From assembly GCA_002633005.1 (NCBI GenBank), contig NMRA01000004.1:439846-503845 (forward strand): a stretch of 64,000 nt of DNA, in the 5' to 3' direction. The position numbers were made by a program, and so were the translations under genes. Shown here one piece after another: positions 36,601 through 58,925 of this stretch (positions are counted from its first letter, which is position 1; each line of letters begins with the position of its first letter). The notes beneath the pieces are model-generated. The model ran no database searches. It had not been told where the DNA came from and saw only the letters and a list, made by a program, of their open reading frames with translations. The stretch is from Phoronis australis. Its lineage: Eukaryota > Animalia > Phoronida.

Positions 36601-39508
36601 TTCCTCTGTATCTTCAAAGGCCCTCAACGAATATCCATAAAATTTGGCAGATAGGCATCTATTAGTGAGGTGACGCTAGCCATTCATTTTCCGATTAATT
36701 CAAGGTATTTTGCACCACCTTGTAGCCATTTTTGTTGTTTTTGAGTATTTTTTTGGCGTCCGTCCCTCTTTCAACCAAGGGCTGTTCCAGCAAAATCTGT
36801 GTGGGAGGGGGGGGAAGGCAACTGAAATAAAAATTTATGGGTGGTTGCGTTTGATTTAAATTCAAAATGGCTGGTGGTCATACTTCAAAAAAATAAAAAT
36901 TTGCAGGTCGTTGTTGTTTCATTGGGCCATAAATGTTTGATGGTGGGTAATTTTAGTAAATTTTATAAACAATCCTCACAGAATCAAAAACTGAAACAAA
37001 AATGCAACTTGCAAAAAGCTCCGACTTTTTCACTCCCTCCGATCTCCTCATCGGCATGCCTATAACACCATTTAACCACAGGTGCTCGAATTTCTCGATG
37101 GCTAATAACCACATATAAGAAACATATGTTTTCTTAGTAATGAATGACGTTAGTGGTGATGGAGGAACAGATAAACTCAAGCGCCTGTGCAGTCAACCAC
37201 AAGAACAAAAAAAATTACGGGTGGTTGCATTTCAAACTTATAAAAAATTACGGGTGGTAGGCTGGAGAAATAAATGAAAAATATGGGTGGTGGGTGCGAA
37301 AAAAAGGTGCCTTCCCCCCCTCCCATACAGATTTTACTGGCACAGCCCTACCAAACCACTTTAAGGATTATTGTGAAAATTGGCATGTGTGTTCTTACTA
37401 GGAAGAGGATGGTTGACGATGATTTTCCGACAATTTCGACAACTGTAGCACCTCCTAGTGGCAGTCATATTTTTTGCACCCATGCCTGTATCTCCTAAGC
37501 CCTCTGCAGGATCGTTATTAAATTTAGCTCTTTTATTCATATGAAGTTAACAGCGGAAGACGAAGACTTTCAGATGGATCCGACGAACACTGTGCAATTC
37601 ATTTTTTTTCGTTTTCCTCTGTTTCTCTTAAGTTCCTTGATGAATTTTTATGAAATTTGGTAAATAGTTTTCTATTAAAGAAATCATGACATTTTTCGGT
37701 TGTCAGACGGATTCAACGTATTTTGCAGCATCTAGTGGCCATTTTTACTGTTTTCTAGTCTGTTTTTGGCGTCCAACCTGTGTCAACCAAACCCACTCTT
37801 AGGATGAGTGTAAAAATTAGCTTATGTTTTTAGTGTGAAGAGGACAGTTGACGATGATTTTTCGACTTCAATTACTGTAGCGCCTCCTAGTAGCAGTTTT
37901 TTTGCACCCTTAGCTGTATCTCCTAAGCCCTCTGTTGTTTTCCTCTGTTTCTCTAATAAAGTTCGTTGACGGATTTTCATGAAATGTGGTAAATAACTTT
38001 CTGTTAAATGTTGACATTTTCCAATTTTTTGATGGATTTTAAGTAGTTTGCACCACCTAGTTGCCATTTTTATGGTACAAATAAACACCCCTAAAAGCAC
38101 CCCGTGTGCAGTCCATTCGTGGGTGCATTTCAATGCTCTGCGTTGCTCATCTTTTCAGCCACAGTCGTTTCCCTTCAGTTCTTTGCAGGAGCTTTTTGAA
38201 ATCTTCCAGGTGTTTTCCTATGAATGTGACAACAGCTGCCCACGGCTTTTGGACGGCTTTGACTACCACTGTACCTCCTAGTGACAATTTTGGTTTTATA
38301 TTTGCCTCTGTATTTTTAAGTTCCTGAATGGTTTTTCATGAAATTTGGCAAACTGTTATGGACAGGACAACATCTTTCTATTTTGGGACTTATTCAATGT
38401 ATTCTGTGCCACATATCGGTCATTTCTATTATTTTTGAGTCTGTTTCTTGACGTCTTCCAAGACTTTCAGGATGCTCATGAAAATATGCAGATGTGTTTG
38501 TACTGACGAGCACGACTGCCGTGGATTAAGATGGGTACTGTTGTGCACTTAGTGACATTTTTTCACTTCTGTGGCTGTATCTCCTAAACCTCTTGCCTAT
38601 GTATCTTTATAGTTTTGTTGATGGATTTTTGTGAAATTTGGCAAAGAGTTTATTTTTAAACAGCTAGGACACCTTTCATTTTCGGACAAGTTTGATGTAT
38701 TCTGCTCAATCTATTGGTCATTTTTGTAATACTCATAAACATCCCAAGAAGCACATTGTTTGCAGTGCATTCATGGGTGCATTTTAGCATTACACATTGC
38801 TCTTGTTGATTTTTTAATAATCTGTCATTAATTGGTTCACATGATTATGTCTTTTTGGAAAAATTTAGATGAACAGAAATGTGCATTGATCACAAAATGC
38901 CAGTATCAATTTCATTTGATACTAATGTTCGAAATGAAATCTCAAATACGCTGTTACAATTGCTAAACTATCATTTCGTTTCATGCAACTTTTGACTTAT
39001 TTCTTGGAAATCATAAAGTCCTATTTTTGATATTCTCTAATGCAAAAGTGAAGCATTTTACATGGCACGCTCCCCCATTCAAATTTCACAGCATTCTTTT
39101 GAAGTAGTATGATCACTCTGATAAGCGATGGTGTGCACAAGTCAATTTGCCTCAGTGTTTCGCTGAAACAGTTTACACAATAGAGGTTGGGACAGTCGAA
39201 AAGGTGCAGGCACTGTGGTAAGTGCCTATTGTAATCCCAAGTGGTAATAAACAACCATAGTTGCTGGTTGAGAAATGTGATGTAGCAGGTAATGAAAAAC
39301 AATTCCCAAGTCTCCAACTTAAAGCATGTTGTAAACTAATATTGAATCTCAGTTGAATCTTCTCTTGGATTTAACTTTGATCTGTGTAACACATTCAGTT
39401 TGCTCTTTGCAGGACAAGCTGTCATCAGTGTCAGTCATGGGTAGTAGTGCTGCATCATTACCAGCTAATGATGCGTTTGATGCTGGAATCACAGATGATG
39501 ACCTCTGA
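24643..39508 (+). CDS. SNX17: Sorting nexin-17 (PX + FERM-like), 15 coding exons, 468 aa
   Basis: Exons: 24643-24702, 26187-26261, 26810-26927, 27786-27850, 28077-28187, 28549-28639, 29449-29542, 30142-30211, 31169-31261, 31966-32106, 32616-32681, 33347-33460, 34378-34455, 34775-34909, 39413-39508. All are GT-AG and phase-compatible (1407 nt). Peptides MHFSIPDT, FPPKKLLSLTP, VRKLQDFESP, YWDTTYDDDL, KVTRMRCWRIT, LELAFEYL and the C-terminus NDAFDAGITDDDL* match SNX17. Confidence 0.97.
26671..26770. repeat. 20-bp minisatellite x5 (cctgatgttatgttaatact), SNX17 intron 2
   Basis: Five tandem copies read directly. Confidence 0.95.
30361..30486. mobile_element. Short hairpin-type MITE in SNX17 intron 8
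   Basis: Imperfect inverted ends aataattagg..ttacgggggt..ggcgttt / aaacgctggacccctgtaa..cctaattatt. Confidence 0.45.
30616..31125. mobile_element. CpG-rich MITE with hAT-like termini in SNX17 intron 8
   Basis: 13-bp TIR cagggcttggaat / attccaagccctg, with a T6 run on each side. A lone copy of the same terminus is at 24862-24877. Confidence 0.7.
31520..31800. mobile_element. Diverged inverted-repeat element in SNX17 intron 9
   Basis: caggattaatagttttcaatag..gagctctctgtat is mirrored by atacagagagcgc..ttgttgaaaattattaatcttgg. Confidence 0.5.
32713..32910. repeat. 33-bp minisatellite x6, SNX17 intron 11
   Basis: Unit aatgttgcagtattgttcactYtctcttaccac; accounts for the repetitive ORFs at 32657-32974. 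Confidence 0.95.
35958..38154 (+). mobile_element. Helentron/DINE-1-like element, copy 3, in SNX17 intron 14; nested in an older copy that ends at 38807
   Basis: Starts ttttttatgtgcccacat and ends cattcgtgggtgcatttcaatgctctgcgttgctcatctttt. More diverged related sequence flanks it (about 35760-35957 and 38155-38807, ending gggtgcattttagcattacacattgctcttgtt). Confidence 0.7.
36778..37349. mobile_element. 572-bp MITE inserted into Helentron-like copy 3
   Basis: TIR of about 40 bp (agggctgttccagcaaaatctgtgtgggagggggggaaggca / tgccttccccccctcccatacagattttactggcacagccct) with a 4-bp target duplication ACCA at 36774-36777 and 37350-37353. Confidence 0.85.
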
Positions 39509-41036: not shown

Positions 41037-43681
41037 CACAAGGCCTCAAAAAGTACAGTGCTTCAGCTAATAGGTTCTGTGATGTAGTGGAATTAAGTGG
41101 TTCTCTTGTAAATGTCAAAAGTATTTGTAGTTGATGCATATTTCTCAGATCATGCCTGTACATAGGAAAGTTAAACATGCATTGAGCTCTAGGTTTCGCC
41201 AAGGGTCAAAAACCTGTGGCTTCAAATGAGATTTCGTTTCAGTGATAGTTGAGATGAAATATTAAAAACGCTGTTACAGTTTTCTTTCATTATGTCTAAG
41301 TTTTATTTAGCTTTTATTTGTTATATAAGTCATATTAAGGTCCTCTTGCTTGATAGACAGAGCAAAAGCGGAGAATTATAAAAGCTACAGGAGAACAGTG
41401 CAACGTTTCATCCAACATCCATTTCTGAGGTATGATGCCTTTTGTGCAGTTAGCCAGAGTTGCACATTTTTGTATGGTCCAATATATTCTCGTAGAGCTG
41501 GTTTAAATTCCTGGAGTTCTCTCCTAAGAAATGCGAAAGTGTAAAATTTAAGGGCACCTAGTACCCTTAAAAATGTACAAATTTGGCAAATCGCTAGGTA
41601 GGCCGAAAGGATTCACACGAAGTTTTCTTGTTTTGTGTTGACCAACTCCAAAAAGTAATCAATAGTTGTTTTTAAAATGTTCTTTTCTGCACCAGGGCTA
41701 TCCGAAAAACTTGGAACTTTAATTTTTTATTTAAAAATTCGTTAGTTACATAAACCGAAAAGGGAATCAGTTAGAAAAACGATAACAGTGTTTTTGAAAG
41801 TTGATGTCGAACATTCAGGGATATCAAACGAGACAAGTTATGCTATTGGTGTCGTTGTTTTGCTATGGGTGTAACTTTCTTATTTGCTAAATTTTGCTAG
41901 TAAGACATGCTCACGTTACCGAGTTAAGGCACATAGTGTAGGTAGTCTAGTGATGTCGTTGCATCAGACGTGCGCAGGCCCATTGCATTAAACATCTGAA
42001 TCCACTCCATGCCACATATAGACAAGTTAAGACGGAGATGAGGAAGTAGTGTCCTGACTCAAAGGTCTAGTAGTACAGTTCACTGTAATTCTAACCTACG
42101 GTCTGCAAGTCATGAACGAGAAAGTAAACAGTCAATCATGTTGCCTCCTCGTCGTGGCGTATTACTGAAGTCGAACTGAACACCAAATTCCACAGGCTGT
42201 TTACTTTCAAAAATATATATACCGGTACTTTACTGAGTTAAACTCTACACTGACTAGTAGAACAGATCCTACAAAACCCTAAAGTGATAGCTAGCCAAAG
42301 AGATTTGTCGGCACCTATTAGCCCGTGTAACGCGCATTCGGTGGAGTATCAACGGGTAAGCACTTATGAATGTATTTCCTCTGGCGGTTTATTGACTAGT
42401 GCATTTAATTGTTTTCTGTTGGAAACATAAACTGGAAACAGCCTAAGATTGTAAACGTTGAATATGTATATAACGTGAAAATGTGCGGGCGGGCATAGGT
42501 GGATTTGGGGCGTGGGCCCGGGCGCCTACAAAAGGTATAACAGCAAAAGTTAAGTTTATTAATTAATTAACCCGGGTAATTAACATTACACGGACGAAAC
42601 AAGAGACCATGTGTGGAGTTTTAATTCGTGTGTGGGGGAGGGAGGTTCAGACAACCACTGCAATCATAACGGTAACTATGGCTAAGTAATGCCGCTTCCA
42701 GTCGATGTCCAGTGCTCGTGATGTCCCAGGCGACCGGCAGTAACGCTGCGCGCTACCACTCCCTTTCCGTCGTCTGCTCCACTGTGCAATGAAGCAAATG
42801 ACTTCATTTTTTTCAGAGAAAACAGAAGTTACAGTTAAGTTGTGAAGCCTGAGCGAATCACTCAAATACTCATAATCTTCTCTTTGTCAAACATTAAAAT
42901 GCGATTTAATGGTAGAGCAAGCGCGTGATTCGGGCCTTACTGAATGCCAACTCGAAAAATGGATTTGGTCTTTTGGGCAACTGAAGACTTTTAAACACAA
43001 CAACTTTTGCTACGAACTGGTGGCACAAAATATAAAGCATGCAATAAACAATACGGAAAAAAACATGTTCGCGTGCGGACTGTGGACCATAAACAAGTAC
43101 CGGGTATATCTCTCGGCTGGAAGAGTGGTAGCGCAATGGAAGAGCACGCGCGCTTTGACCAATCGGTCGTGAGTTCGGATCCTTGCAGTTTTACGAATTT
43201 TCCATTTTTAAATCACAAGCGGCAACATCGCGGTTAAACTGTTCAAATTTAAGCACACGAAAGTCTAGAATCAAGGGCGTTTTTAGTGGCAACGTAACGA
43301 GTTGAAAATTTGCCGTGCGGCGACGTCGGATTCAATTCCAGAATGCGATCTTGGTCTTGTGATTTTGCCGCGCTAGTCGCCAATAGCGACCTGGTCAAAG
43401 TAGAGCCGTCGAGGGCTGTTTATACCTCCAGAGATCAAGGAAAATGGTTCTTTTCAGAGGCAAAAACCAAATTTTCCCCTCATTCGCCGCTACGCACCGC
43501 AAAGCGCGATTGTCAACGAGACCGAAATGTTGCTCCTCAGGCTACCCTAGATCCACCTTTGTGTTGACTCAAAAAGCCTAGTTCAGTGCATACGCCTAAT
43601 TCACATCAAGTGTTGCAGCCATATAACCGTTTGCCTCAAAAGCTCTACACGTCCTCGTCTTACGTTGCCTACCCTTGCCCA

Positions 43682-43912
43682 CTTGTTAGACCAAAACTCG
43701 AATACTCCTCCGTCTGGTATCCCTCAACAGTAGCACAAATGTTGAAAAAATAGAAAAATACACAGCGTAGAGCAGCCAGGTTCGTTTTAAATGACCACTC
43801 AAGGTACTCTTCCCTTTCATCCATGCTCATCAACTGTCAAATGGCCACCCTCCCGGAAAGACGAGCTCAAAACAAAGTGTCCCTTCTGTACAAGACCGTA
43901 CATAACTGGTAG
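43682..43912 (+). mobile_element. Decayed CR1/L2-type non-LTR retrotransposon fragment (ORF2 C-terminus)
   Basis: One frame gives LVRPKLEYSSVWYP...*..QRRAARFVLNDHSRYSSLSSML...LPERRAQNKVSLLYKTVH, the LVRPxLEY / QRRAARF / ERR signature found downstream of RT, with an internal stop. Confidence 0.8.
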
Positions 43913-44458: not shown

Positions 44459-45659
44459 TTTCTCTTTTGTCGTAAGCCTTCCACTTGTGTGGATGTTTTG
44501 TTTACTGAGAATTGACATCCCAGTGCTGAACTCGCTGCTCCGGCTAAAGGTCGGACAAGTGATGACAACTCAATCAAGACAAGGTCAAGGACAAATGGGT
44601 TGTGGAAGTCCATGATTTTATAGACATCCTACTCATGTCCAAGCTACCTTCAGAGGCAGTAGGTTGGTAATCCGCCTACTGGTAATTGCATCGCTGGGAA
44701 TCCAGATAACAGAGCCGAGGTTGAGAGGTAGCTGTGCTAAGTGTTCTCACATAAGACTCAGGCTAGGCCTAGGCCCGGCACGGCAGCAGTGCAGTGGCAC
44801 ACATCCATCCCGTCCACTACTGCACTAGAAGATTTTCTGCAAATTGCGCTTAACCCTTGCTAGAATATATCAGTGATCGCGCAACTATATGTACCTTTCT
44901 GAGTGTAGTCTGTAAAGCATAGACACCTTTGGAGACTGTGAGTTAGAATCATTAAATCCTCCACTTGTACAATTAACATTTGGAAATAGATGGAAAGGCT
45001 AAATGGAACCCTGATTTGAGAACCAGTAACTCCCACTGAATGTCTCCCGTTATTCAGCGGTAGTAACTGGTTCTCCAATCAATTTTAAAGCAAAGGCCCA
45101 CCTATCCAACTATGACCCAACATTTTTTTCAAACAATCCTTCATTCCAGCATCAAAATTGAAGACTGAATGGCATGGCATGGCACTGCAGTCAATGTGCT
45201 CAGGTCAAACAGAAAAATGTAAATAGGGTTATGGTGAGGTCACCCGTCTGCTGGCTACGCCAAGGGGAGGCACACTGAAACGGGGCACTTGTTTTTTCTG
45301 AGACAAGAGGGAGAATTTTTCAGTTGAGGAAAGAACTTCTCCTGCCCCCAAACTTCTAGTAGACAAAATTTTTGTTTTACATAAGTGATTCTAATCATGA
45401 GGTAATTTTTTCTAAAACTGAAGGTAAATTTTGGGCCTGGTGAGTCACGTGATTTTTAATTGATTGAATTGGAGAATGGAGCTAATATGCTACACTCTAG
45501 CGTCCCGGATAACGGAGTGTAAGTACATGAAAACCTCTGCCAGCCTGCTAGGAACCAGTCCTGGATCATTAATCAAAGATATGACACCACTGACACCAGT
45601 GGGTGCTTTTTAATGCTCTGAGATGCTCTTGTTTGTGTTGCAGTCAGAAAGTAACCAGA

Positions 45660-48600
45660 ATGGATGAGGAATCAAAGCTGAGTTTGCAACTGAATCGTGT
45701 CCTGCTCATGACTGATTTGGATCCTGACGATGTTGTCAACTATCTTTTTCAAGAGAAAATTCTGAACAAAGATGACATGGAGCAATTACAAGCTGAGGTT
45801 TGTGAATACCTTATTGTTGAATGAATATTGAATGAGCACAATTTTTGAAATGTGTTCTTTTTAAAAGTTTATTAAATCTCTGAAATTAATTGAATATTAA
45901 ATTGATTTGTTTTTAGCTATCCTTTGTCCACATCAAATGTTGTGCTGTAGTTTCAACAACTTTTCAAACTGATTTTTTGATTCACTCATTTTTTGAAATG
46001 GTGTTTAAAACCACATTACTGATTAACCAGTAGTGTTGACTGTCTTGAACTTTGCTGTTTTGTTTGACAGAGACTGAAGTCTAAGAGAACACAGATTCTC
46101 CTTGACAAGCTGCCTGGCAAAGGTCCAGATGCCTTTCCCACTTTCCTGAAAGCGCTGGAAGAGGCTGGATACTCCCACTTGGTTACAGCCCTGCGCACTG
46201 CTCAATGGCCCCAGACGACTCGATGTCGACACCTGAGTGGAAGTCAGATACAGGTAAATCTATTATGACCTGGCCGAAGCAAAAAATCACCTTGGCATTT
46301 TATGACATTTTGAAGTAATGCCAGGCAGTTCCAGTAACATCTGTCTTCGTGACAATAGACGGGGGTCCTATTACAATACCAAGATGGCCGAAATCCTGGT
46401 GCTCTTCAGTACCAATAGGAAAATTACTGTTTATTTTCAGACAAAGGAAGTGCAGGCTGAATGGACTGGTACTGATGTCCAGCAGTGTTACGCTTTGTCT
46501 ATGACCAAAACTTTGAAGCTCCAATTAGACTTGAGAGCATCACACATCCACTCTGATGACATCTAGAGTTCAGACAGAGTTTGGCTGTTAAATAAACAGC
46601 CTCAACAAAATTAAATGGAAGGATGGTAGTTTGTCAGCGGTACATTGACATAGCTTATATCAATTACTGTGTCACTCTCTTGCTGTTCACTAATTTTGTT
46701 TATGTGTCTGTATATATGATAGGTTCCAGGGTCTTGTGTCACTGCTGTTATTTACTGCCAATTTTTTCAATGTTTATGCTGTGCATTATCTCTTAGGCAA
46801 TGATGATTGAGGGTGCTGTGCCGCAGAGACCTTCCATTTACAAGGAACGTCCGGAAATTGAAGAGGTCAGGGAAAAACTTGAGATAATCTCGCGCTCACC
46901 AGGATTCGTGGTCATACACGGCATGGCTGGCATCGGAAAGTCTGTGCTGGCCTCGGAATCTGTGAGGGATTCTAAAGTGTTAACTCTGTACTTCCCTACA
47001 GGCGTTTATTGGATTAGTATTGGGCAGATCGACCTGAAGCAAGACTCGCAGATGATGCTGGTTAAGATGCAGAATCTTTTGGCACGCTTGGACAAACAAG
47101 GTAAGGTGTCACCTCGAAATGTCGAAGAGGCAACTGATAGGCTACGCACGGTATTCGCTCAGCAATACCCAAAGTCTTTGCTTATCCTGGATGATATTTG
47201 GAGCAGTGCAGCTCTCGCCGCTTTTGATATACAGTGTCGTACTATGGTCACAACGCGAGACGCCGGCATAACATTCAAAGTTCGGGGTGACGTCCACAAA
47301 GTGGCACTCTCGCAGGGTTTCACAAACGAACAGACAAAGGAAGTGCTCGCTGAATGGACTGGTACTGACATTGGAGAACTGCCTAGTGAGGCTGATCAGA
47401 TCTACAGGGAGGTGAAAGGATCTCCGTTTGCCATCTCCTTGATCGGTGCTCTATTGAGAGACCACCCAAAAAGGTGGGCTTACTATGCTGGTTTACTAGC
47501 AGAAAGAAAAGTGAAGAAATTCCGTCGTGCTATCTCTTACCAGTATGAGACTTTGACAGAGGCTGTTGGGATTAGCTTTCACAGTCTGGCAGACGAGACG
47601 AAGAAATACTACCAAGACTTTGCAGTCTTCGAGGGTGATGTGAAAATACCTGCAAAGGTATGTGTTTCCGCTTTTTATGCAACAATGTAATTACTCTTAC
47701 CACTAAATGTTTCAGTGCTCTGTTTCTGTCTTGAAGGTTTCATCCTGTAAAATATTGGCAATATTATACATAATGGCAGAAAGACATTAACATGGATGTC
47801 TTCCAGATAACTAATAACGGTCGTACAAGTCTTAGAAAGGTTAAAGGTAAAAGCATTCATTTTTGTTGTTTACTTAATATAAATACAGATTTGTGGTTAT
47901 CTTGTAATTACTGTTCACTTCACAGGTATGCACAACTTATGGAACAACAGGAAGTGATGTCAACGGCTCTGCAAAGAACCACCATCTTGGTCTGTGTTCA
48001 CTCTCATGGTGCAAACACAAATAACCTGCACAGACTGTGCAGAGTGTAGGACATGAATGCAGACTCAAGGTGGTGGCCCTTTGTTGGGCCATTGACATCA
48101 CTTTCTATTGTTTCATGGGTAGCTCATTCCCTCCAAGGGAATATTTTTTTGTTGAGGTTGCATTAAACATGGTTGCTTTCTTCTTGCACTTAAGCTCCTT
48201 CCAATCAGAGTTATTTGTACGTTTTTATGCTGCTCTTTGTTTTGTGTTGATGAGTGCATCATGTTAGTAAAAGTCTGATTCTCCTTGTGCTAAATCTTAA
48301 GTTCCTTTAGTGGCATGCGCCTGTTGACTTGAGAAAAGACTTGTGATCCATTTTATCAAAGGTCATGAGTTCAAATATAGCTAAGACAGTGTTACGCATG
48401 TTGTTGCACGTAGCAACAACATGCATAATAGTGAAAATGTTTCAATTGGTGTAAAGTTGATAATTTTTATATTCAGATTTGACAACCACCTTCACGACCT
48501 ATGTCAATGAGCTGTGTGCAAATGAAAGTCAAAACCATGAATGCCTTAGCTAAGGCTGGACTTACCACCTTTCTTAAAACAAGACCCTGCTGCAAAAACC

Positions 48601-49782
48601 AGGGAGTTTCATGTAAATGATACTACTCTTATCATCAGGTCTTCCTTATTTAGGTTCTGTCCATCTTCTGGGATGAGGATATGGAGACTGTGGAAGACAC
48701 AATGATCAGTCTGGTTAACAAGTCCATGGCATTCCAGGAGGATGCTCCCAAAGGAAGCACCAGCAATTACGTGTATTACTTGCATGATCTCCACCTGGAT
48801 TTCCTGAAGGATCAGTGTGTTGATCAAAAGGTTGACATTTGTTTATTTTAGAGATCTTGCCTCATCAGTTGCTGGCTGTAGTTGTAATCTATTCCTTCAG
48901 TCATTGCTGCTGCAGCTACTACAACTAGAACTATGTAAAATATCATTACTATAGTAATGGGTCTATTTTCTCTACTTTGTCTACAAATCATGCTAATACT
49001 ACTCCTACTGCTTCTTCAGCTAATGGAAGTAGTGCTGCTAAGTGCTGCCTCCACTTCTGATACTAATTTTACTACGGCTTCTACAACTGCCACTAAAAGT
49101 ACTGCTGCTGCTGTCACTACCACTACTAATGCTGCTTTAAAAGTACTCGTGTTACTTCTTACTACCAGAGGACTTGTTGCTTCTGTTTCTGCCACTAATG
49201 TTTCAGCTACTTCTGCTATTGCAGAATAGTGACACTGCTGCTAATGGTGGTGATACTTCTAAGTGCTACTACTGCTTCTTATACTGCATTTGTTACCGCT
49301 ACTAGAATTATTTCTAGATTTGCTGCTAGTGTTACAGCTACTGCAACTGTTACAACTACGTCTTGTGCTACAGCTAATGGTGGTACTACTGCTGCTAGTG
49401 GTGGTGATACTTCTAAGTGCTACTACTGCTTCTTATACTGCATTTGTTACCGCTACTAGAATTATTTCTAGATTTGCTGCTACTGTTATAGCTACTGCAA
49501 CTGTTACAACTACGTCTTGTGCTACAGCTAATGGTAGTACTACTGCTGCTAGTGGTGGTCCTGCTGCTAATTGTGGAGCTACTTTCAAGTGCTAATACTG
49601 ATTCTGATACTCCTATTACTATGACTACTGCTACTACTACTACTGCTGCTACTGCTTCTGGTACTGATTTAGCTACTGCAAATACAATTGCAACTAATAC
49701 TACTACCTCTACAACTACTTCTGCAACTACTACTGCTACAACTATTACTACTTTAACTACTACTACTATTAAAACCGCTTAT

Positions 49783-49838
<56 letters not shown>

Positions 49839-52103
49839 CTGCTGCTGTTGCTACTGCTGTAGTGACTTGTATTAACTCCTGTTACTGTTTGGAATATTGC
49901 TACAGATAGTGTTAAAATTGAGTGTGATTCCTTTTTATGCTTGCTGCTGTTGAAGCTCCCAATTCTTAATCAAAGTTTGATGGCTTCAACTAAAGATACT
50001 TGTGGTTAATGTAACTGGCTGTAAATTACTTAATGTGTGAGTTGTTACTGTTGTTGTCATGATTGCTTGCGGCATTGTAGCTACAGCAAATATAACTGCT
50101 GCTGCTACTGTTCCTGTTACTGTTGCTTGCTATCACTGCTAGTGCTAGTCTTAGCATTACCCTGCTGGTGATGGTGGTGCACAAGGTGAAAAGTCTTATC
50201 TTGCCCCCCAACCTGTTGGCCATTTTGAACGTCAAATGTGCACTGTTGAGCAGTTTTATTTCTTAAAAACTAGCTTTGTGTTGCTTTATGGTAAGTGTTA
50301 CTAACGTCAGGACAAATATCATAGAAATTGTGAACGTCGTTTTATCACTGGTTATTTGCTGATAACAAAAATGTCACATTACAGAAGTTGAACATTGATG
50401 ATTGAACTAAGACTACGACTAAAGACTGAATGGGCCATGTTGCATAATACTTCAAAATTATCTCCTGGATAAATTCGGTTGTCTTATGGTATCATCTTAT
50501 TATTCATTGCTCACAACATGACTCATGACAGTGTGGTGCCAGTATATGACATGTACGCACCCACACCGTGTTGTTTACGTGATTTGCTGTTTTCTGAATG
50601 TTGTGCATTACCATTCCAGAGGTTGCATGAAAAGTTTGTGGAGAAGTACAAGTATCACTGCAATGGACAGTACCATGATCTGGTGGATGATGGCTACATA
50701 TTCTGGTATCTGGGTGACCATCTGAGCAAAGCTGGCATGTTTGAAGAAATGGGCAAGGTACATGCCATTCTAGACATTTTATTTTGCTTGGTAGCTTCAG
50801 TCATCTAAGATCTGGTGGTTAAGCATTAGGTTAAAATTAATGTGGTCAGACTCGGGATTTCTTCACAATTCATTGTGACAACTTTATTATCTGAATATTA
50901 AATTCTGAAGATTTATTGGTATGCGAAGTGTTGTATGAAATCTTAAAGCAGTTGTCTTTCTGTGTTTGGCTGTATTGTCTTTACGTTACAATTTCAGATT
51001 TATTTTGACTTGCGTTTTGTTGCTGCGAAGATCAGTGCAACTGGGCTATCATTCGTGCTTGGTGATTATACACAGAACAGTCGCACTCTTAATGTTTTGG
51101 TATGTGAAGGAAATGGCATTGCACATAAATTATGATTGCTATGTGACTTTTTGCACACTCTTTAGTTGAGAGAGACTGAATCTCAACTAGTGAATAACGT
51201 TATGACATTTTTTGCATTGAATTACAACAGGGGTTTAAGCCATGTTTGGCAAATCTCATCATGATCATCAACAAATAACGATTTGATGATACTGGTGCAA
51301 AAATGTCAACATTTGATGGGAACAGCTTTTAATGTTAACTGATTTATTGTTATTAACATGACATAGGCAAGAAATTAAACTCCGAGTTTCAAAAATGGGG
51401 CGGCCCTGCATTAATGTAGGAAAGGCCCAGTTCCCTGCTCTTTGGCTACCTGTGGGTCGGCCCTATGCTAATATAGGGGCCCTTTTCTTTTGTTGTCTTG
51501 GGGCGGTGCCATCCTTATTAATATAGGCAGCATTACTTCTGAGGCCCAAAATTGAATTTTTACTGAGATGTCATTTTAATAAGAATAAGTAATTTAAACA
51601 ATAGGCTGTTTCGGACTTATTTCGACAGGATCTTCTACCATTAGCACCAAGTAGTCCAAGGTCACTTGATGGAAAAACTGGCAGAACTGCACTTAAATAA
51701 CTTTTAACGCCCATTAAAACGATCATTTATAAGTGAATGACATATCATTACCCACAAGAGGATCAGAAAAACAGATGGCTATGGGATCAGAAAAAAAGTT
51801 GAGAACAAGATCTGAAAAAGCGTCTGTCCTTTTTGTGATAGATCTCTTTCTCTAAATCACATTGACTGAGTGCAAGAATATGGTTTGTCATTTAAATTGC
51901 AAGTTTTTCATGGAATCACATTTTCCACAGGATCCGCAAAAGCAGACGGACTTTTCCAAGTTTTTGGCCCACTTGTCTGTCGAGAGAGAGCGTGACATCA
52001 TACAGTGCGGTCTGCTGCAGCCGTCAAAGTCAGAGGTCTTGATCCAGGCTCAACTCTTGCAGAACAATAGCAATGAGCAGCTCGACAAGTACTTGAAAAC
52101 ATG
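45660..52103 (+). CDS. APAF-1-like moiety: CARD, NB-ARC, winged-helix and helical domain 2 (exons 1-7), no WD40
   Basis: EGAVPQRP, Walker [10 protein letters not shown], Walker B LLILDDIW, sensor I TTRD, GxP motif [27 protein letters not shown] and [15 protein letters not shown] run colinear with APAF-1 up to the end of HD2. Confidence 0.95.
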
Positions 52104-55100
52104 GTAAACATTATGTCTCACTTCTGATTTGTCATTCAACATAGAGTTGTCTAGAAGATACAAGTGTTAAGGATGACAATTACTAAAGGGTCAGTGCAGA
52201 TGTAAAACCAGGTGCCTCAAAAGCAAATGATTTCGGATCATAGCTGATGTCTATGACAAAATGAATTACTAGAATTTTTGCTTCGCAAGGCAGTGAAGTG
52301 AATGTCTCACTTGTTGGATTGTGTTTATTTGGTGAGCATAAGTTCAAAACCTGCAGGCGAATGAGCTAGGTGTTTAGCTGATTACCTGTGGTATCCTATG
52401 GAAATCAATTTTTGCGTCATCTGACAACGAATCGCTCTCGCTGGCTCATTCTAACCATGTGTACTACATTTATTCTGTTTACTACGAATGCAATATACAG
52501 CTCAGTCAGCATTCTATCTTGGTACAGGTAACAATTACTTGATTTAAATTTCACTAGAGACACACAGCTCAGTTCATAACTTTCTGTTTGCGGTGTCTTT
52601 CTTATTTGTAGTCTGTTATTGATTGACTCCACTGCGAAAGCTCAAATTTATTTCATTCAGATTAAATATGCGTAATTCACCCAAGTGATTGTGTTTTGTG
52701 ATGTAGTTTTCAAAAAAGAAGATATTTCTTTTTGTCAAAAGTCTGCAAAATTTATTTTCATCTCTTTTGCTTCTGGGTTTTCGCCAGACAGATTTTAAAG
52801 CAATTTTTCAACTTTTTTGGAAACTACTTTATTAGATTTATATTTATCTTGGTTAATACAATGTCTTGAAGCCCTCCCAAGAACAGCGTAGATACTCTAA
52901 GTATCAATGAGAGGCCGTACAAGTGTGATGCATCAGATCTCGAACTCATTTCCAACATTGGCAGAAGCTCAACTAGTATCGTGGACAAGGTGCGACACAA
53001 ACCATCAGGCACCATTATGGCTCTCAAGGTAAACAGATTATGCACCAATTTAGATACACATTCTCAGAGTTAAACTCTTGAACATTAGGAAAATTGGGAA
53101 GTTGTACTCCTGAAAAATAAACCTGTTAAGATTAACGCAACAACTGATATTACCATTATCATAGTAATTTCTTTGATGCTTTGCTTTACACTTGTTGATC
53201 ATGGAAAGTCTCAAGATTGTTGCAAGCTGGAACAGCATGGTCGTCCTTTTGTATCATACTATTAAAAAACTTTTAAAAATATTTCTCATAACCTGGAATT
53301 CAATAATTTGGTCCCTATGACCCAAACATAGTATTGAAGTCAGATATTTAGCCTGGGCTTAGACTATGGGGTCCAAAAACTTGGTATTGAAATCAGTTTG
53401 ATACAGCTTTTTTCTAGAAATTCACCATGGGCTCACACTATATAGGTCCAGAAATGTGTGCTTTCAAACCCAATTTAGTTAGTTACCAGACTGATTTCCT
53501 CTCGGCTTGGGCTTGGAGCATCAGGTCCAGAAAAGTGCAATTTCAAATCCATAGCAAGTTAACATTTTTTCCAGAAACTCAGCGTAGGGTCAGACAATCA
53601 GGTCCAGAAACGTGTACTGAAGCATCTTGATGTCTCCATGCGAAGTGCCTCTTGCCCTCATACTGTGCACTTCTACGGAGCTCTGTTCCACGAGGTTTGT
53701 CTTACGATGCCAGTCAGTAGTTGACTAAATTTGGCCAAGCTTGTTGATATGTCACTTGTAAAGATTTGGCTTGAGTTTGCACTTCCGTTAGGTGCTGAAT
53801 AATCATTTTTCTAGCTTGAATTACATTCTCCAACTTTGAATTATATGCATGATTGTTGAATTTTGAGCCTTTTTTTATAATTGAGACATGCTCCAACTCA
53901 CTCTTAATGCCAAAGCTCTACTTCAGCTCTGACAGATATATCCAGCTGGTGAAATAATCATGCTTTCTTTCATATGATTTCAGGGAGATGTACAGATATG
54001 TATGGAACTGATGGACACATCCTTAGAAAAGCTCTATAAGAAAGCTGCTGAAATGAAGAGAAGCATTCCGGAGAACTTTCTGTGCAAGGTGGCATCTGAT
54101 GTATGTATTTGGATGACAAGTTTCTTTGGGAAATTCTGCTTGGCTGAGATTCTTATCTTGAGTTCATGCATAAGTTAATGAGAACAAAATATTTTGCAGC
54201 GTTGCTGTGAGATTAGTGGGAAATATTTGTTTGCACTTTCTTGTATAGACAGTGTTAGTGTGTGTTCACCTAGGTATGGCTTGTGTTATGTAAATTTGTT
54301 TTTCGGTGGTTTGTGTTTAGCTCATGGAGTAGGCTAGAATTGGAGTGGTTATGCATGTCCTGGTTTTCCAGTCATGCTATCTGTGACAACCCGGTTAAGT
54401 ACAGCTAAATTTATTGTATATTTAGATCTGCAGAAGGTTCATAACTGTTTCAGATGCTTGGATTTGCATTTGCCAAATGGACAAGGGTTTCTTAGTTTTT
54501 TAGGCATTGGGATATTGCTTTCTGGGACTGCTTTGTGTTATCCTATCATGAACAGCTGAGGTATGACATCGCTGTGGCGGCATTTTCTGTCATTGGCTTT
54601 AAATTTAAAGGTTTTGCCTACTTTTAGATTATAGATGCCCTTCATTACCTTCAGTCAGAGTTGAGCGTTGTACATCGAGATGTGAAACCAGCCAACATTC
54701 TACTCAACAAGGAAGGTATGATCAAATTGTGCGACTTTGGGATAAGCAGCCAACTGCAGGATAGTATCAGTAAAACTCTGGACAAAGGCTGTAAACCATA
54801 TATGGCGGTAAGTGTTAAATGAGAGAAACTGTTGCTATATATGACACTAAATAATTTATTTCCAGTTGTGCATGAGTGAAAGGTTACGCAGTATACCTCG
54901 CATAATTCTTCACTATTGAGACTATGTACTACAAAATATTCTAAACCAGACCATGCAACGGTTTGTACAAGGAAAGTAGAATGTAAATCCTTCAAGTGTT
55001 CTGGAACAACGGAATGGATCAGGAATCATCCCACTGGCAAATAAATTGATACTAACAAAAAATTGACAGAAAGTCCAAAACTATCTGATGGTTTATGCCA

Positions 55101-56684
55101 AGATGGATTAAGCAGAGTATACTGCGTCTATGCCAATCTCTTGTGACTGACTGCTGACACACAGTGGCAAGTTACAGTAAAAATATTTAACGTGTATGGA
55201 CACTGCCGTCACTTCTTGGGCATCTAACTATTTCTGGGATGAATCCGAGCTCTAGGGCCTCCCCTGTTAGGTTTCTCTGCGTATGGCTCTATATCTACCA
55301 ATTTCGTTGATGGATATTTGTAAATATTTATCAAGGAGGCAACAGCACCTGGCTGTACCTCAAGTGTCCCTTTTATATATTACATGATACTAAATATACA
55401 TTCCTAAAAGCATACCATTTACTATTCAGTTGTGTGTGCATTTCAAAGCTTTGTTAATTAAATTAGTACTAAATCTGGTAACGTCTGATGGAAGATGATG
55501 GTCAGTTTTTTCTTCTTTACAATGGTACGTACGCAGCCATTAATTTTGTTTTCTTTTTTCAGCCTGAGCGTATAAATCCAACAGTATTGATGAGGTACTA
55601 CGATGAGAGATCTGATATCTGGAGTCTTGGGATAACTTTGGTAATTATAGCTTAATTTGTTTCTTCAGACTCCTTAAAACAACTTTCGTTTTGAATCTGT
55701 CCAAAAACATAATATTTTTATATTTCTAATACTTGAAGCTGTTAAGCTCCAACTAATACATAATGTGTGGTTACACAATCAGCTATTTCTCAATCAAGTG
55801 ACAGCCAGATTGCCTTTGGTGAATAAAATGGTGACCTATGTAATGTTATTGAGCTCCATCAGCTACAGCAATGTCTCGACAGTTCTTCCAAAGCCCAGAA
55901 ATCAATCCTTGCCTGAGTAAGATGCAAGTTGATATCAGTGTTGTAGCTGTAAGTGGTCTTCGTTTACATTTAAATTCAATGAAAACGGGCGATTTGAAGC
56001 GTTATCTCTCGTTCCAAGAGAAATCGATGATTTAGTGATCGAGATTACTGAAATTGTTGTTTTGCCTCTGTGACTTCAGATCGAGGCAGCTTCTGGTCAG
56101 CACCCTTACGCCAACTATGCAAATATTCATAAACAGCTCACAGCAATCGTTAACGGCGACCCTCCTACATTACCAACAGGAGAGTTTTCCTATGACTTTG
56201 AAGATTTCATTGGATGTTGGTAGGTATAACATACACATTTTTGCGTGACTTTGTCTTCTCGTTTTATTTTGTTCTCCTGCCATCTGTTAGTGGGATCCAT
56301 AGTATTCACGACTATCCATTCGCATGCATGTCTGATTTAACTAAAGTAACTAAACTGTTGATAAGATGGCTAAGCCTTTCTGGAATTAGAATTTTGTAAT
56401 AATAGTTTTACTCATCGTTTTTTCTCATTTAACTGGTTTAGTCATCATAATGGGGAGTTGGTATTTTGTGTGTTTTTGTTGTTTACTGTAGGTACATGTT
56501 GCTGCTGTCTGGTCAAGGGTCGGATATTAACATGTGATGGTTTTATGTTTTACTTCCGTTTCATTTCAGCTTACAGAAAAACTACAAAAACCGTCCCAAG
56601 TACAACACATTGAAGCAACATACATTCATTACTAAACGCAGTAAGGAGGATACAGGGTTTGTGAAAAGCATCCTTCAAGACTGA
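45660..56684 (+). CDS. CARD - NB-ARC (APAF-1-like) - MAP2K (MKK3/6-like) fusion protein, about 892 aa (901 aa with the micro-exon)
   Basis: Exons: 45660-45797, 46071-46253, 46797-47657, 48654-48830, 50620-50757, 50998-51099, 51931-52103, [52501-52527 optional], 52872-53028, 53575-53694, 53984-54100, 54628-54807, 55563-55640, 56080-56219, 56570-56684. All are GT-AG and phase-compatible, with no internal stops (2679 nt without the micro-exon). The junction acceptor is the least certain splice site. Confidence 0.8.
48900..50180. repeat. Low-complexity ACT/GCT-rich intron with a tandem duplication of about 154 bp (49237-49558) and a (CTG)17 tract (49785-49835)
   Basis: Read directly; lies between exons 4 and 5 of the fusion gene. 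Confidence 0.9.
52872..56684 (+). CDS. MAP2K moiety, MKK3/MKK6-like kinase domain (exons 8-14)
   Basis: [100 protein letters not shown] and [21 protein letters not shown] and the C-terminus fit MKK3/6 better than MKK4/7. Confidence 0.93.
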
Positions 56685-57075
56685 TCCACTCGTATACAGG
56701 ATTTGCCGAGGAGTGCTCAACATTACGGCATGTAACATGTTTATTGATTGATGTATTTGGGTTCCATCTTTTTTCTCCTGTAGGATGCTCAAGTATTCTG
56801 CCCATGTAGTGTTTGTCACTGGGCAGAGAAGCATTCCTGTTATACAGTGCAATGTAGTTTCAAGAGAGTTTTTTGCTACATGCAAGTTAGTACACACGGT
56901 TTTAACATGATTTGGTTTGTGTCATATCTTAAAGTAACCGCAAATGGGAATTGAGGAGTGAAATACTGTGGATGGGCATTAACTGTGTGTGGCCTATTTT
57001 TGTTGAAGCATGTTGCTCAAGCATCGCAGATTTGTCACTTTGTCTGTAGCTGAGCATAGCATCATTTCTGCTATC

Positions 57076-57303
57076 CAGGGGCTTGTTCCAAGAAACTTAC
57101 TTAAGATCTTTTTTGACTTAAGTCTAAGGTATGTCTCAACTTCCAAACTTTTAAACTTCCACATTCAACATGATAGTTAAAAACTGAAGTCAAACCTAAA
57201 CAATCTCTTCCTTGAAACGGACTTGAGACAAATTTTAGTTTCATCTTAAAATTGAATGAAAATTTTCTCTTAAGTAAGTCAATTTTCTTGGAACGGGCCC
57301 CTG
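57076..57303. mobile_element. MITE in the presumed 3'UTR of the fusion gene
   Basis: TIR caggggcttgttccaagaaa / tttcttggaacgggcccctg with inner acttacttaaga / tcttaagtaagt. Confidence 0.7.
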
Positions 57304-58742
57304 TTCAGTGGGGGCATTTTACTTTTTGCTAGGTCTTCCACTATCATGGTACCACCTGCATTTGGATGGTTGTAGCTTTCCTGAATTCTTTGAATTATGA
57401 ATCTTAATGTATTGACGTCTTATTGAATGTCACTGCTGTGTCTTGGACTGCTTGTTTAATTCCTGGAACAATGAGCTCTAGTACAGGTGACCATGTAAAC
57501 ACAAGCAGTTTTACCGTTGTTTTGATCACATGTACAGTTGTACTATTAGTGTTAATGGAAATCTACCACTGGGACTTAAAAGAATTATTTCCGGTAACAG
57601 CTGTGTACACCGTAGACTTGTTGAATGCATTGTAATGGAGTAGTTGCTAAGCAACACCAGTTGTGAGGCCGTAAGACTTTGGGGTGTCATTTTTTGATGC
57701 AGTCTACAGTATTGCAAATGTCTTTCAACGTGAAGAATGAAATTTGTTGTGAAGTTTAAAAATAGGGTAGGCTACTTATAAAACAATTTTTAGAAGAATT
57801 TTATGAATTATGAAATGAATAATTTTTTATTGACTACTGTTCAAGTTTGAATAATTGCTTTATTTCTGTTGAGAGATATTTTTGAGATACATTTTCATGC
57901 ACCCTGCTGTTTACTTAATGATCGGATAACTATTTGCTGTACGTGATCTGGTTTCATAAAGGAATTGGAGAACTAAGAAATTAAGAATTTCATCTTTTTT
58001 AATCGTTTTATTGTGGTGCATACTGAGGTTTTTCCTGTTACCCAATGGTCACTGGACTGGATATTACAAGTCAGATGTTTTTATGAAAGTCAACCCAGGT
58101 TTTTAGATGATATACAATGACATTTTTACAAAACTTGAATGCGATTCAGGTCTTGTTTTGTATTGGTGCAATAAGATGTAATGTTTTCATGACATTTATG
58201 ATGGAAGATGTTCATTGGAACATTTGATTTGGATGAAGTGATGCTGAAATTGTGCTGCGCTTTTATGTGTTGGTTGTTTCCAAGTCTTCCTGGCAGTTAA
58301 AGTTGCTCTACAATGTTAACAAAAATTACCGAGATATTTCGTTTTATTTCCACAGTGAAACATAGTTACATTTTCAAATTGATTTGTGTAAGTATGATGC
58401 TCTACATTGTACGTGGAAAGGATTGGTATTTCTGTTTGCAATAATGACCGTTGCAAGTGATCAGGTTTGAGAAAAGTTCACCGATTGACGTTTTAGACTT
58501 GCCAGATTTAAAGGAATCTGCAACTGTAGTACACAAAGTCATTTAGATCTCATTTTTGTACACAAATATTGAATGCCCATTGCGTAATTGTTTTCTCAAA
58601 ATATCTAGGCAATTTCCCTGTCAAAAAGCACCATCTTCAGTTAACGGCAACTCAGTTTATCGAACATTATTTACCTTTTACTTGTATACAATTTCTGTGT
58701 GGTTGTGATGTCAACATAAATTGTTGAACCACTGTTACATTT

Positions 58743-58748
58743 AATAAA
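58743..58748 (+). terminator. Candidate poly(A) signal of the fusion gene
   Basis: AATAAA followed by a GT/T-rich downstream element, about 2 kb after the stop codon. Confidence 0.4.
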
Positions 58749-58925
58749 TAGATTTTAAGCGAGAAGTGTTCTTTTAATGTGCTTTGTGTATATTGTTTGA
58801 CAACAAATTCCTGTTGAATATTTTTTCATTTGTTAGAGTCAACATTTCTTAGTACCGTTACAGCAATATTGGAATGCATTTACTGTTCTGGGAAGATTAA
58901 CCAAGTTCACAGACGGTGAAACTGG

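Follow-up and report, generated by a model that had tools for sequence, protein, structure and literature searches.

A C-terminal copy of a signalling kinase combined with an NB-ARC domain is known from plant NLRs such as barley Rpg5 and the RGA5 and RRS1 homologues with kinase or MAPK domains; extracts of PMC4246468 propose that such copies serve as effector bait. In the ZAR1-ZED1 system, an NLR and a pseudokinase sense the acetyltransferase HopZ1a, ZED1 being acetylated by the bacterial effector (extracts of PMC6634424). In animals, CED-4 and the expanded APAF-1-like proteins of amphioxus, sea urchin and Nematostella, including BbeApaf-J, lack the C-terminal WD40 region or carry something else in its place, such as TPR or an undefined region (extracts of PMC2246300 and PMC11747288). 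Those extracts name no kinase replacement, and the word 'kinase' occurs 0 times in that of PMC2246300.

The Phoronis australis locus described here, in a window of 64,000 nucleotides (the whole stretch analysed), would, if its two halves are spliced together, share with the plant proteins an NB-ARC domain and a C-terminal signalling-kinase copy; with the invertebrate proteins it has in common the missing or replaced WD40 region. It comprises 14 GT-AG exons on the + strand (Table 1), and joining 52103 to 52872 yields an open frame of 892 amino acids. Whereas in plants the kinase is added to the repeat sensor, here it would replace it; the scaffold is an animal APAF-1 with a predicted CARD output, Pfam detects no LRR family in the 14 exons, and the window shows no paired helper. 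By analogy with ZAR1-ZED1, a degenerate kinase would be the component whose state is monitored by the NB-ARC switch. However, ZED1 is a separate, LRR-bound protein of the RLCK family, whereas the kinase here is a MAP2K that likely lies on the same chain. The architecture had earlier been noted as unfamiliar, and its novelty held: CARD/NB-ARC plus MAP2K occurs neither among 267 NB-ARC and 240 MAP2K relatives nor in the literature searched. Our preferred reading, to which we give slightly less than an even chance, is that of an expressed APAF-1-like gene in which a degenerate MKK3/6-like sensor or decoy would stand in for the WD40 region, with caspases as the output of the CARD.

Table 1. Features of the locus, in window coordinates.
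Feature	Position	Strand	Content	Evidence
Exon 1, coding part	45660..45797	+	ATG and first CARD half, aa 1-46, phase 0	Pfam CARD E 2.5e-5; RNA depth
Exon 2	46071..46253	+	Second CARD half and linker, aa 47-107	Pfam CARD E 1.3e-5; joint 2/3 in reads
Exon 3	46797..47657	+	NB-ARC, aa 108-394	Pfam NB-ARC E 4.4e-31
Exon 4	48654..48830	+	Winged-helix domain, MHD-type His438	Pfam APAF-1-like_WHD E 1.9e-15; joints 3/4 and 4/5 in reads
Exon 5	50620..50757	+	HD2, first part	Pfam APAF1_C E 6.6e-9; joints in reads
Exon 6	50998..51099	+	HD2, middle part	Pfam APAF1_C E 0.0025; joints in reads
Exon 7	51931..52103	+	HD2, end	Pfam APAF1_C E 0.0033; joint 6/7 in reads
Inferred bridging intron	52104..52871	+	768 bp, phase 2	In-frame acceptors before 52872, 52887 and 52902 all weak
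Exon 8	52872..53028	+	Kinase start at PP motif, without KIM/D-site	tblastn with MKK3/6 relatives; joint 8/9 in reads
Exon 9	53575..53694	+	alphaC helix, His660	RNA reads; alignment
Exon 10	53984..54100	+	Hinge and alphaD/E	Joints 9/10 and 10/11 in reads; tblastn with MKK3/6 relatives
Exon 11	54628..54807	+	HRD 738-740, K742, N745, DFG 758-760, activation loop S768-x-x-K771-T772	Pfam Pkinase E 3.9e-16
Exon 12	55563..55640	+	APE end and alphaF	Joints in reads; Pfam Pkinase E 0.029
Exon 13	56080..56219	+	alphaG helix, p38-facing residues changed: I824, H825, T829, A830	Joints in reads
Exon 14, coding part	56570..56684	+	Kinase C-terminal tail and stop	Joint 13/14 in reads
3' UTR	56685..58760	+	About 2 kb; first AATAAA at 58743; repeat fragments inside	Sense RNA depth

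The first seven exons encode CARD–NB-ARC–WHD–HD2 with intact STAND motifs (Pfam, alignment). Pfam assigns CARD to exons 1-2 (PF00619 above its curated cut-off on each), NB-ARC to exon 3, the APAF-1 WHD to exons 3-4 and the APAF-1 helical domain to exons 5-7, PF21296 and PF17908 covering WHD and HD2, and Pkinase to exons 11-12 of the second half. Exon 3 is 45-50% identical to invertebrate and vertebrate APAF-1, has APAF-1 1z6t as its top PDB match (E 5.6e-76) and contains Walker A (G149-S156), Walker B (D239-D240), sensor-1 R261 and GxP (315-317). The MHD-type histidine is His in 49/50 relatives. The STAND half deviates at one of 54 conserved columns (relatives' mean 2.8), and in the tree the APAF half is sister to a 26-row APAF-1 set (91/82) and inside no starred set. 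The domain order CARD, NBD, HD1, WHD and HD2 is that of APAF-1 (PDB 1z6t, 3sfz, 3jbt), the nucleotide motifs are intact, and the 590-591 amino acids match the length of the 591-aa chain of 1z6t. Unlike canonical APAF-1, the Phoronis gene has a MAP2K module after HD2, a more diverged CARD (32% identity, against 43% among invertebrate APAF-1) and no WD40 propellers, and thus no canonical cytochrome c site. Exon 7 ends at the W-x-N column where the WD40 of relatives starts (alignment). The earlier note had seen seven APAF-1-like exons stop at the end of HD2 with a phase-2 donor at 52103, which Pfam, the alignment and the 6/7 joint bear out; it had also seen no WD40 exons, and tblastn with seven full-length APAF-1 queries likewise found no convincing one within the 64-kb window. 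The sole WD40 match had an E of 0.71 and lay on the opposite strand.

The other seven exons begin 768 bp 3' of exon 7 on the same strand and encode an MKK3/6-like kinase whose top PDB match is MKK6 3vn9. In a quick tree of 40 rows it groups with MKK3/6 against MKK4 and MKK7 (SH-aLRT 95) on a long branch, 1.24 against a median of 0.22, or about five times as long; its identity is 51%, against 69% among relatives. The kinase is far diverged and yet runs for 301 codons without a stop, which argues that it is translated under selection. That both halves lack stops and frameshifts had been noted before; the frame is indeed open, but the degeneration of the kinase motifs had been missed. The kinase deviates at 23 of 107 conserved columns (relatives' mean 1.4). 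In a separate count by region, deviations are spread over both lobes (16/48, 7/38, 4/22 and 7/31 conserved columns). Two of three glycines are lost from the G-loop (GRSSTS, G621-R-S-S-T-S626), whereas GxGxxG is kept in 178/179 MAP2K relatives, and the alphaC acid, Asp in 58/58 relatives, is His660 (Gln in many reads). The KIM is absent, the module starting at the PP motif, whereas 44 of 53 full-length relatives carry a D-site-like pattern upstream of it; of five alphaG residues that contact p38, one is kept. The module shares with MKK3/MKK6 (MAP2K3/6, licorne, SEK-1 type) the beta3 Lys (Lys643), HRD, DFG, S-x-x-K-T and APE, and N745, K742 and the C-terminal tail pattern are kept as well. It differs from them in the missing KIM, in the changed G-loop, alphaC acid and alphaG contacts, and in being likely tethered to a STAND ATPase. 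Four conserved residues of the activation segment are changed, which could weaken mimicry. Since HRD, DFG and the beta3 Lys are intact, residual activity is possible.

Both halves are transcribed from the + strand in all three raw-read runs. At least 11 of the 13 predicted introns are spliced at the predicted sites among the 15 of 19 RNA-read joints listed, and two of the four joints outside this listing are unaccounted for. The exon 1/2 joint and the exon 7/8 joint (52103->52872) are both absent among these 15. If the 7/8 joint were as frequent as its neighbours, the probability of no run reaching 3 reads would be 0.02, and that of a total of 7 or fewer 0.14. Summed depth per base is 12.7 in exon 7 and 14.3 in exon 8, with 11 reads on each outer joint, and about doubles between exons 8 and 9. 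The bin lying wholly within the gap (52110-52563) has a depth of 1.9, against 0.58-2.06 in six other intron bins (6.72 in a repeat); this is intron level and leaves room for about 70 nt of 3' UTR or start-exon sequence at most. A kinase-frame stop at 52867, upstream of exon 8, requires an upstream exon of phase 2, and exon 7 is the sole APAF exon of that phase; its donor is also the best-scoring of 49 GT sites in the gap. In favour of the fusion, each half moreover breaks at a site where the record of a relative does so too: P0283 terminates at that W-x column, and the divergence of P0121 starts one residue ahead of PPRDLDS. The earlier note had set the kinase exons about 770 bp downstream at a phase-2 acceptor. 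Spacing and phase stand, but the acceptor at 52872 scores weakly: in the larger matrix the in-frame acceptors reach -1.9, -3.3 and -5.0, against 2.7-11.1 for 24 other window acceptors, and the A at -3 of the 52871 acceptor is found in 0/24 of these. Since the 7/8 joint is not listed and the acceptors are weak, the fusion can only be inferred, and we consider in-frame splicing of exon 7 to exon 8 probable. The proposed APAF-1/MAP2K chimera remains the best reading; the open frame and the depth across the gap fit it, and no junction read is among the joints listed.

It is quite unlikely that the locus holds two neighbouring genes. The first would be a CED-4-like APAF-1 of 591 aa that stops at 52107; the second, a distinct MKK3/6 paralogue, would either have a short first exon of its own within the gap or start at the ATG at 52861, this haplotype then carrying a nonsense allele or a base error. 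The unlisted 7/8 joint and the weak in-frame acceptors fit this, as do that in-frame ATG, confirmed to be followed two codons on by the stop at 52867, and two open stretches with an ATG and a phase-2 donor (52173-52201 and 52457-52527), whose donors score normally in the larger matrix (5.2, 5.1). To say that no independent MAP2K start exon is visible was thus too strong. P0283, a WD40-less APAF relative, likewise stops at the W-x column. WD40 is also occasionally missing in invertebrate homologues (extracts of PMC2246300). However, start-exon candidates arise in other introns at about one per 768 bp, i.e. about chance; neither candidate resembles a MAP2K N-terminus or holds a KIM, and tblastn with six MKK3/6 relatives found no MAP2K N-terminal exon in the gap. 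The roughly 70 nt allowed by depth would have to accommodate the 3' UTR plus any first exon; as for a poly(A) site or TSS inside 52104-52871, there is no AATAAA and no CpG-rich promoter (CpG o/e of 0.52, as in introns, compared with 1.15-1.24 ahead of the gene). If the exon 7 donor is read through, a W-stop at 52105-52107 does result, and hence a 591-aa kinase-less form, but such a stop is automatic for any phase-2 GTAA donor, and no 3' UTR-level depth follows it. Very unlikely is a single mRNA in which exon 7 is spliced mainly to the AG at 52835, with a stop at the junction, a kinase-less APAF-1 and kinase exons that are the recently silenced remnant of an older fusion. With 5.8 and 1.2 in the two matrices, this AG scores above the acceptors around it, and bin depth cannot distinguish 52836 from 52872. 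Transcripts with a premature stop and six introns beyond it are targeted for decay, but coverage of the kinase exons is good, their reading frame is unbroken in the window and the read differences listed include no stop. A misjoin of an APAF1 locus and an MKK3/6 locus in the assembly is highly improbable: some antisense RNA depth in the gap suggests a repeat fragment, but the region is free of N, the kinase is a derived copy and not a canonical MKK3/6, the phases are compatible and expression is at a similar level on both sides of the gap.

The fusion may be real and the kinase nevertheless no more than a structural cap or a passenger in decay, which would make the protein a damped or dominant-negative regulator of the CED-4 kind that senses nothing specific. 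We regard this as unlikely. The long branch and the deviations spread over both lobes speak for it, together with the absence of an orthologue with the APAF-1/MAP2K linkage among the relatives searched. So do the coding differences in reads, 9 of 12 being non-synonymous and none a stop among those listed, although mostly non-synonymous differences are as compatible with an arms race as with relaxed selection. Against it, all catalytic-loop and activation-loop acceptor residues and the C-terminal tail pattern have been retained while the p38-facing residues are gone, and the seven exons are free of stops and frameshifts. We give little credence to the kinase as output, in which oligomerisation would cluster an active MAP2K that phosphorylates p38. 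The beta3 Lys, HRD, N745, DFG and APE are all preserved, as are both phospho-sites of the activation loop, and clustering could partly replace docking; but the protein would then have no evident sensor, and MKK6 engages p38 through KIM and alphaG, its alphaG mutants showing p38 signalling down by 70% (bioRxiv 10.1101/2022.07.04.498667). With both elements and the G-loop and alphaC motifs lost, the coupling of oligomerisation to p38 that had been suggested is disfavoured.

The loss of the p38-docking, G-loop, alphaC and alphaG features, together with the retention of HRD, DFG and S-x-x-K-T, argues against p38 signalling and for a sensor or decoy. In this preferred sensor reading, the WD40 exons were likely replaced by the MKK3/6 module through exon shuffling, and a weak or dead kinase, unable to engage p38, would sit where the propellers are in APAF-1 and take over their autoinhibitory role. 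A covalent change or binding at its MAP2K-like surface would be the trigger, most likely from MAP2K-targeting bacterial effectors (a decoy) and less likely from a host MAP3K (a stress sensor). The modified activation loop would then release the ATPase for oligomerisation, with apoptosome-like caspase recruitment by the CARD as output. Anthrax lethal factor, one of the triggers first suggested, is an improbable one, since it cleaves MAP2Ks in their N-terminus, which is absent here. [quoted passage not shown] By analogy with plants, it is possible, if rather doubtful, that an animal apoptosome scaffold captured a MAP2K pseudokinase as an integrated decoy, such that p38-disabling effectors modifying MKK3/6 would trigger caspase-dependent death. 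We are equally tentative about the other part of this decoy reading, that a plant-style NLR integrated domain evolved independently, in one polypeptide, in an invertebrate.

The integrated decoy is a key concept of plant immunity, and the literature searched yielded no animal STAND protein of this design. If our reading is true, a single exon-shuffling event can rewire the apoptosome switch to a new input, here by putting a copy of a heavily attacked signalling kinase in place of the cytochrome c sensor, and effector-triggered immunity by integrated bait would have evolved in animals too. The residue pattern makes the sensor model testable. Even without a decoy role, the Phoronis gene would be a natural experiment on what can substitute for WD40 autoinhibition.

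The locus is real, expressed and unusual, and its gene is most likely a CARD-STAND-pseudo-MAP2K chimera with a putative joint between exons 7 and 8. Pfam searches on the exons place CARD, NB-ARC, WHD and HD2 in exons 1–7 and a protein kinase in exons 8–14. Joining 52103 to 52872 yields 892 codons with no stop, in agreement with the earlier note, which had described two stop-free halves meeting at a phase-2 junction. Its reading that WD40 exons are missing also holds, as tblastn with seven full-length APAF-1 queries returned no convincing match in the 64 kb. Exons 1–6 end in phase 0 and exon 7 in phase 2, and the exon 7 donor scores highest among 49 GT sites in the gap. A stop at 52867 closes the kinase frame, so that the kinase depends on an exon upstream that ends in phase 2. 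The end of exon 7 falls at the W-x-N column found just ahead of WD40 in relatives, the point at which P0283 also stops; the latter is an unnamed Logan record of a 588-aa APAF-1-like protein without WD40 on a 4272-nt contig. The first kinase codon immediately precedes the PP motif, and at this point the gene model P0121 departs from its own relatives. The break points of both halves look like old intron positions, and the human genes carry phase-2 introns at the corresponding sites.

Features of the locus and its surroundings
Feature	Position	Strand	Remarks
Sorting nexin 17 gene, upstream neighbour	24643-39508	+	Pfam PX and SNX17_FERM_C; 12 exons, one open frame; end near 39508 read by eye
CpG-rich stretch	42500-43800		o/e 1.15-1.24; likely promoter and untranslated first exon of the APAF-1-like gene
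Acceptor	45643		16 nt ahead of the ATG
Probable chimeric gene	45660-56684	+	14 GT-AG exons
Partial exon 3 copy, intron 2	46438-46475		38 bp, 95% identical to 47331-47368
Triplet repeats, intron 4	49000-49870		Low complexity; draw reads from elsewhere
Variable stretch, HD2 end	52025-52054		Reads and window differ at six positions in 30 nt, near the junction
Gap between exons 7 and 8	52104-52871		768 bp
Short frame ahead of kinase	52861-52872		In-frame ATG, one Ser codon, stop directly ahead of kinase frame; one changed base in other animals would yield a stand-alone kinase start
Contig match in exon 8	52935-52993		91-nt contig of run X4 matches over 59 nt; last 32 nt unplaced among the matches listed
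GT in exon 8	52990		Could serve as alternative donor
Repeat, 3' UTR	57100-57300		Widespread; draws reads from elsewhere

Judged from sequence comparison, constraint differs between the two halves. In an alignment with 50 APAF-1 relatives, 54 columns are conserved, and the STAND half departs from them at one (the relatives do so at 2.8 on average); Walker A, Walker B, sensor 1, GxP and His438 are all intact. According to PMC7583971, His438 of APAF-1 touches ADP in the closed state. APAF-1, MKK3/6 and SNX17 genes with spliceosomal introns mark the host as an animal. In a tree of 40 NB-ARC rows the sequence falls within none of the supported groups, be they echinoderm, hemichordate, vertebrate or coral. 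Loss of APAF-1 is reported for molluscs, annelids and one brachiopod (PMC11463336); an APAF-1 is on record in a nemertean.

The kinase half deviates at 23 of 107 conserved columns compared with 58 full-length MKK3/6 relatives (relatives' mean 1.4, maximum 15). It shares 51% identity with MKK3/6 relatives, which share 69% among themselves, and in the tree it joins MKK3/6, with a branch length of 1.24 where the median is 0.22. Two G-loop glycines are lost (GxGxxG is present in 178 of 179 MAP2K relatives), as is the αC Asp found in 58/58 relatives, and the N-terminal KIM, the p38-docking element, is absent. Four of the five αG positions that face p38 in MKK6 (F264, Q265, L267, K268 and E272, mapped by pattern; bioRxiv 10.1101/2022.07.04.498667) are changed. 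Retained are Lys643, HRD, Lys742, Asn745, DFG, Ser768, Lys771, Thr772, APE and the hydrophobic tail. Such heavy change without a stop across seven exons indicates that the kinase frame is translated under selection.

Transcript evidence came from three stranded raw-read runs and one contig set with the same species label, compared over 45300–58900 with about 18–19% of each raw run read. Of 13 predicted introns, 11 were matched by read joints at exactly the expected positions. The APAF half accounts for five of them (7, 17, 17, 12 and 11 reads) and the kinase half for six (11, 25, 11, 16, 22 and 29 reads). Nine of the 12 coding differences in reads listed alter the residue, among them a change of His660 to Gln at αC (40 of 175 rows of differences listed; paralogues may contribute). 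One of the αG positions is Asp in many reads.

We consider it probable that exons 7 and 8 are joined in a translated fusion. The earlier note had proposed a search for reads spanning 52103 to 52872; this joint, like that of exons 1 and 2, is absent among the 15 of 19 joints listed, but sense reads add up to a similar depth per base on exon 7 (12.7) and exon 8 (14.3). Two of the four further joints look like repeat artefacts, and two could, at a guess, be exon 1/2 and exon 7/8. Were the exon 7/8 joint as frequent as its neighbours, the probability that no run reaches three reads would be 0.02, and that of at most seven reads in total 0.14. The in-frame acceptors at 52871 and 52886 score −3.0 and 0.0 in a 12-site matrix (members −0.8 to 10.6), and in a 24-site matrix (members 2.7 to 11.1, 11 of 24 RNA-confirmed) the three in-frame acceptors, before 52872, 52887 and 52902, reach −1.9, −3.3 and −5.0. 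An AG at 52835 outscores them, and its use would place a stop at the junction; such a truncating splice is, in our judgement, very unlikely. The detour through a 52501–52527 micro-exon raised previously was discarded, given acceptor scores of −2.6 and 0.1 and no read support listed. The read-through stop after exon 7 was likewise set aside as evidence for a genuine C-terminus, since the donor sequence by itself creates such a stop.

The weak acceptors count equally against the fusion and against a kinase gene with a separate first exon. In favour of two genes, the gap holds two ATG-led candidate first exons with phase-2 donors, which tempers the earlier claim that an independent MAP2K start exon is missing; tblastn with six MKK3/6 queries found no MAP2K N-terminus in the gap. 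By the first matrix the candidate donors reach 2.5 and 1.6, at a background of about 1.2 such candidates per 768 bp of other introns, and 5.2 and 5.1 in the second (the background frequency is known for the first matrix only). Against two genes, depth leaves room in the gap for no more than some 70 nt covered like an exon: a bin wholly inside it has a depth of 1.9, and the values for six other intron bins are 0.58, 0.72, 0.91, 1.16, 2.06 and 6.72, the last being a repeat. Moreover, the gap contains no AATAAA, and its CpG o/e is 0.52 compared with 1.15–1.24 upstream of the gene. Its one ATTAAA lies 557 nt downstream, and the same hexamer occurs in 9 of 12 other introns. Two separate genes are thus unlikely, and a misassembly is barely credible.

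In STAND proteins, a C-terminal sensor keeps the protein closed and bound to ADP, and a ligand brings release (PMC7583971); the kinase module is the sole candidate here for that role. The module appears to have lost what acting on p38 requires and kept what others act upon. In MAP2Ks, MKK6 among them, Ser, Thr and Lys of the activation loop are targets of YopJ-family acetyltransferases, and a Lys of the MAP2K catalytic loop is the target of VopA from Vibrio (PMC10419152). From this combination we infer a bait. Modification of, or binding to, the kinase would shift the module and allow nucleotide exchange, whereupon the protein would oligomerise and its CARDs could bring in a caspase. The switch could be thrown by a host MAP3K as well as by an effector. 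That the fused module is a sensor working through these putative steps is a tentative reading, a little short of an even call. A fused kinase that is a passenger or cap is somewhat unlikely. An active output kinase is quite unlikely, with G-loop glycines, αC Asp, KIM and four αG positions lost. Of the two roles offered by the earlier note, p38 coupling thus suffers from the loss of p38-acting motifs, and the sensor or decoy gains from the retained Ser768, Lys771, Thr772 and Lys742. Anthrax lethal factor, also named there as a possible trigger, targets the MAP2K N-terminus. Cleavage by it was rejected, as this region is absent from the kinase module.

The proposed working would be similar to that of plant NLRs that carry an integrated kinase, Rpg5 for instance (PMC4246468), and of ZAR1 with the pseudokinase ZED1 (PMC6634424). 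Unlike both, the predicted P. australis protein has an APAF-1 core and no LRR; it differs from canonical APAF-1 in lacking WD40 and from canonical MKK3/6 in its docking and catalytic motifs. Exchange or loss of WD40 is known among invertebrate APAF-1 homologues (PMC2246300; PMC11747288), and the available portions of these two papers name none with a kinase in its place. Querying longer proteins (best 120 of 123) and 50%-cluster representatives (best 150 of 3791) with exon 3 gave no MAP2K-profile match in 267 distinct NB-ARC relatives among the matches listed. Conversely, an APAF-profile match was found in 0/240 MAP2K relatives among the matches listed for exon 11 (best 120 of 974) and for an annelid MKK3/6 against proteins of 600–2000 aa (best 120 of 751). 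Absence among best matches is weak evidence for uniqueness. Among ESM Atlas clusters without WD40, none of the ten matches listed belonged to a kinase family, and a metagenome scan found no relative. In titles and abstract beginnings, the literature surfaced plant or fungal NLR topics and not this architecture, which supplements might list. An integrated-decoy role is a plausible prediction for this putative chimera among APAF-1-like proteins.
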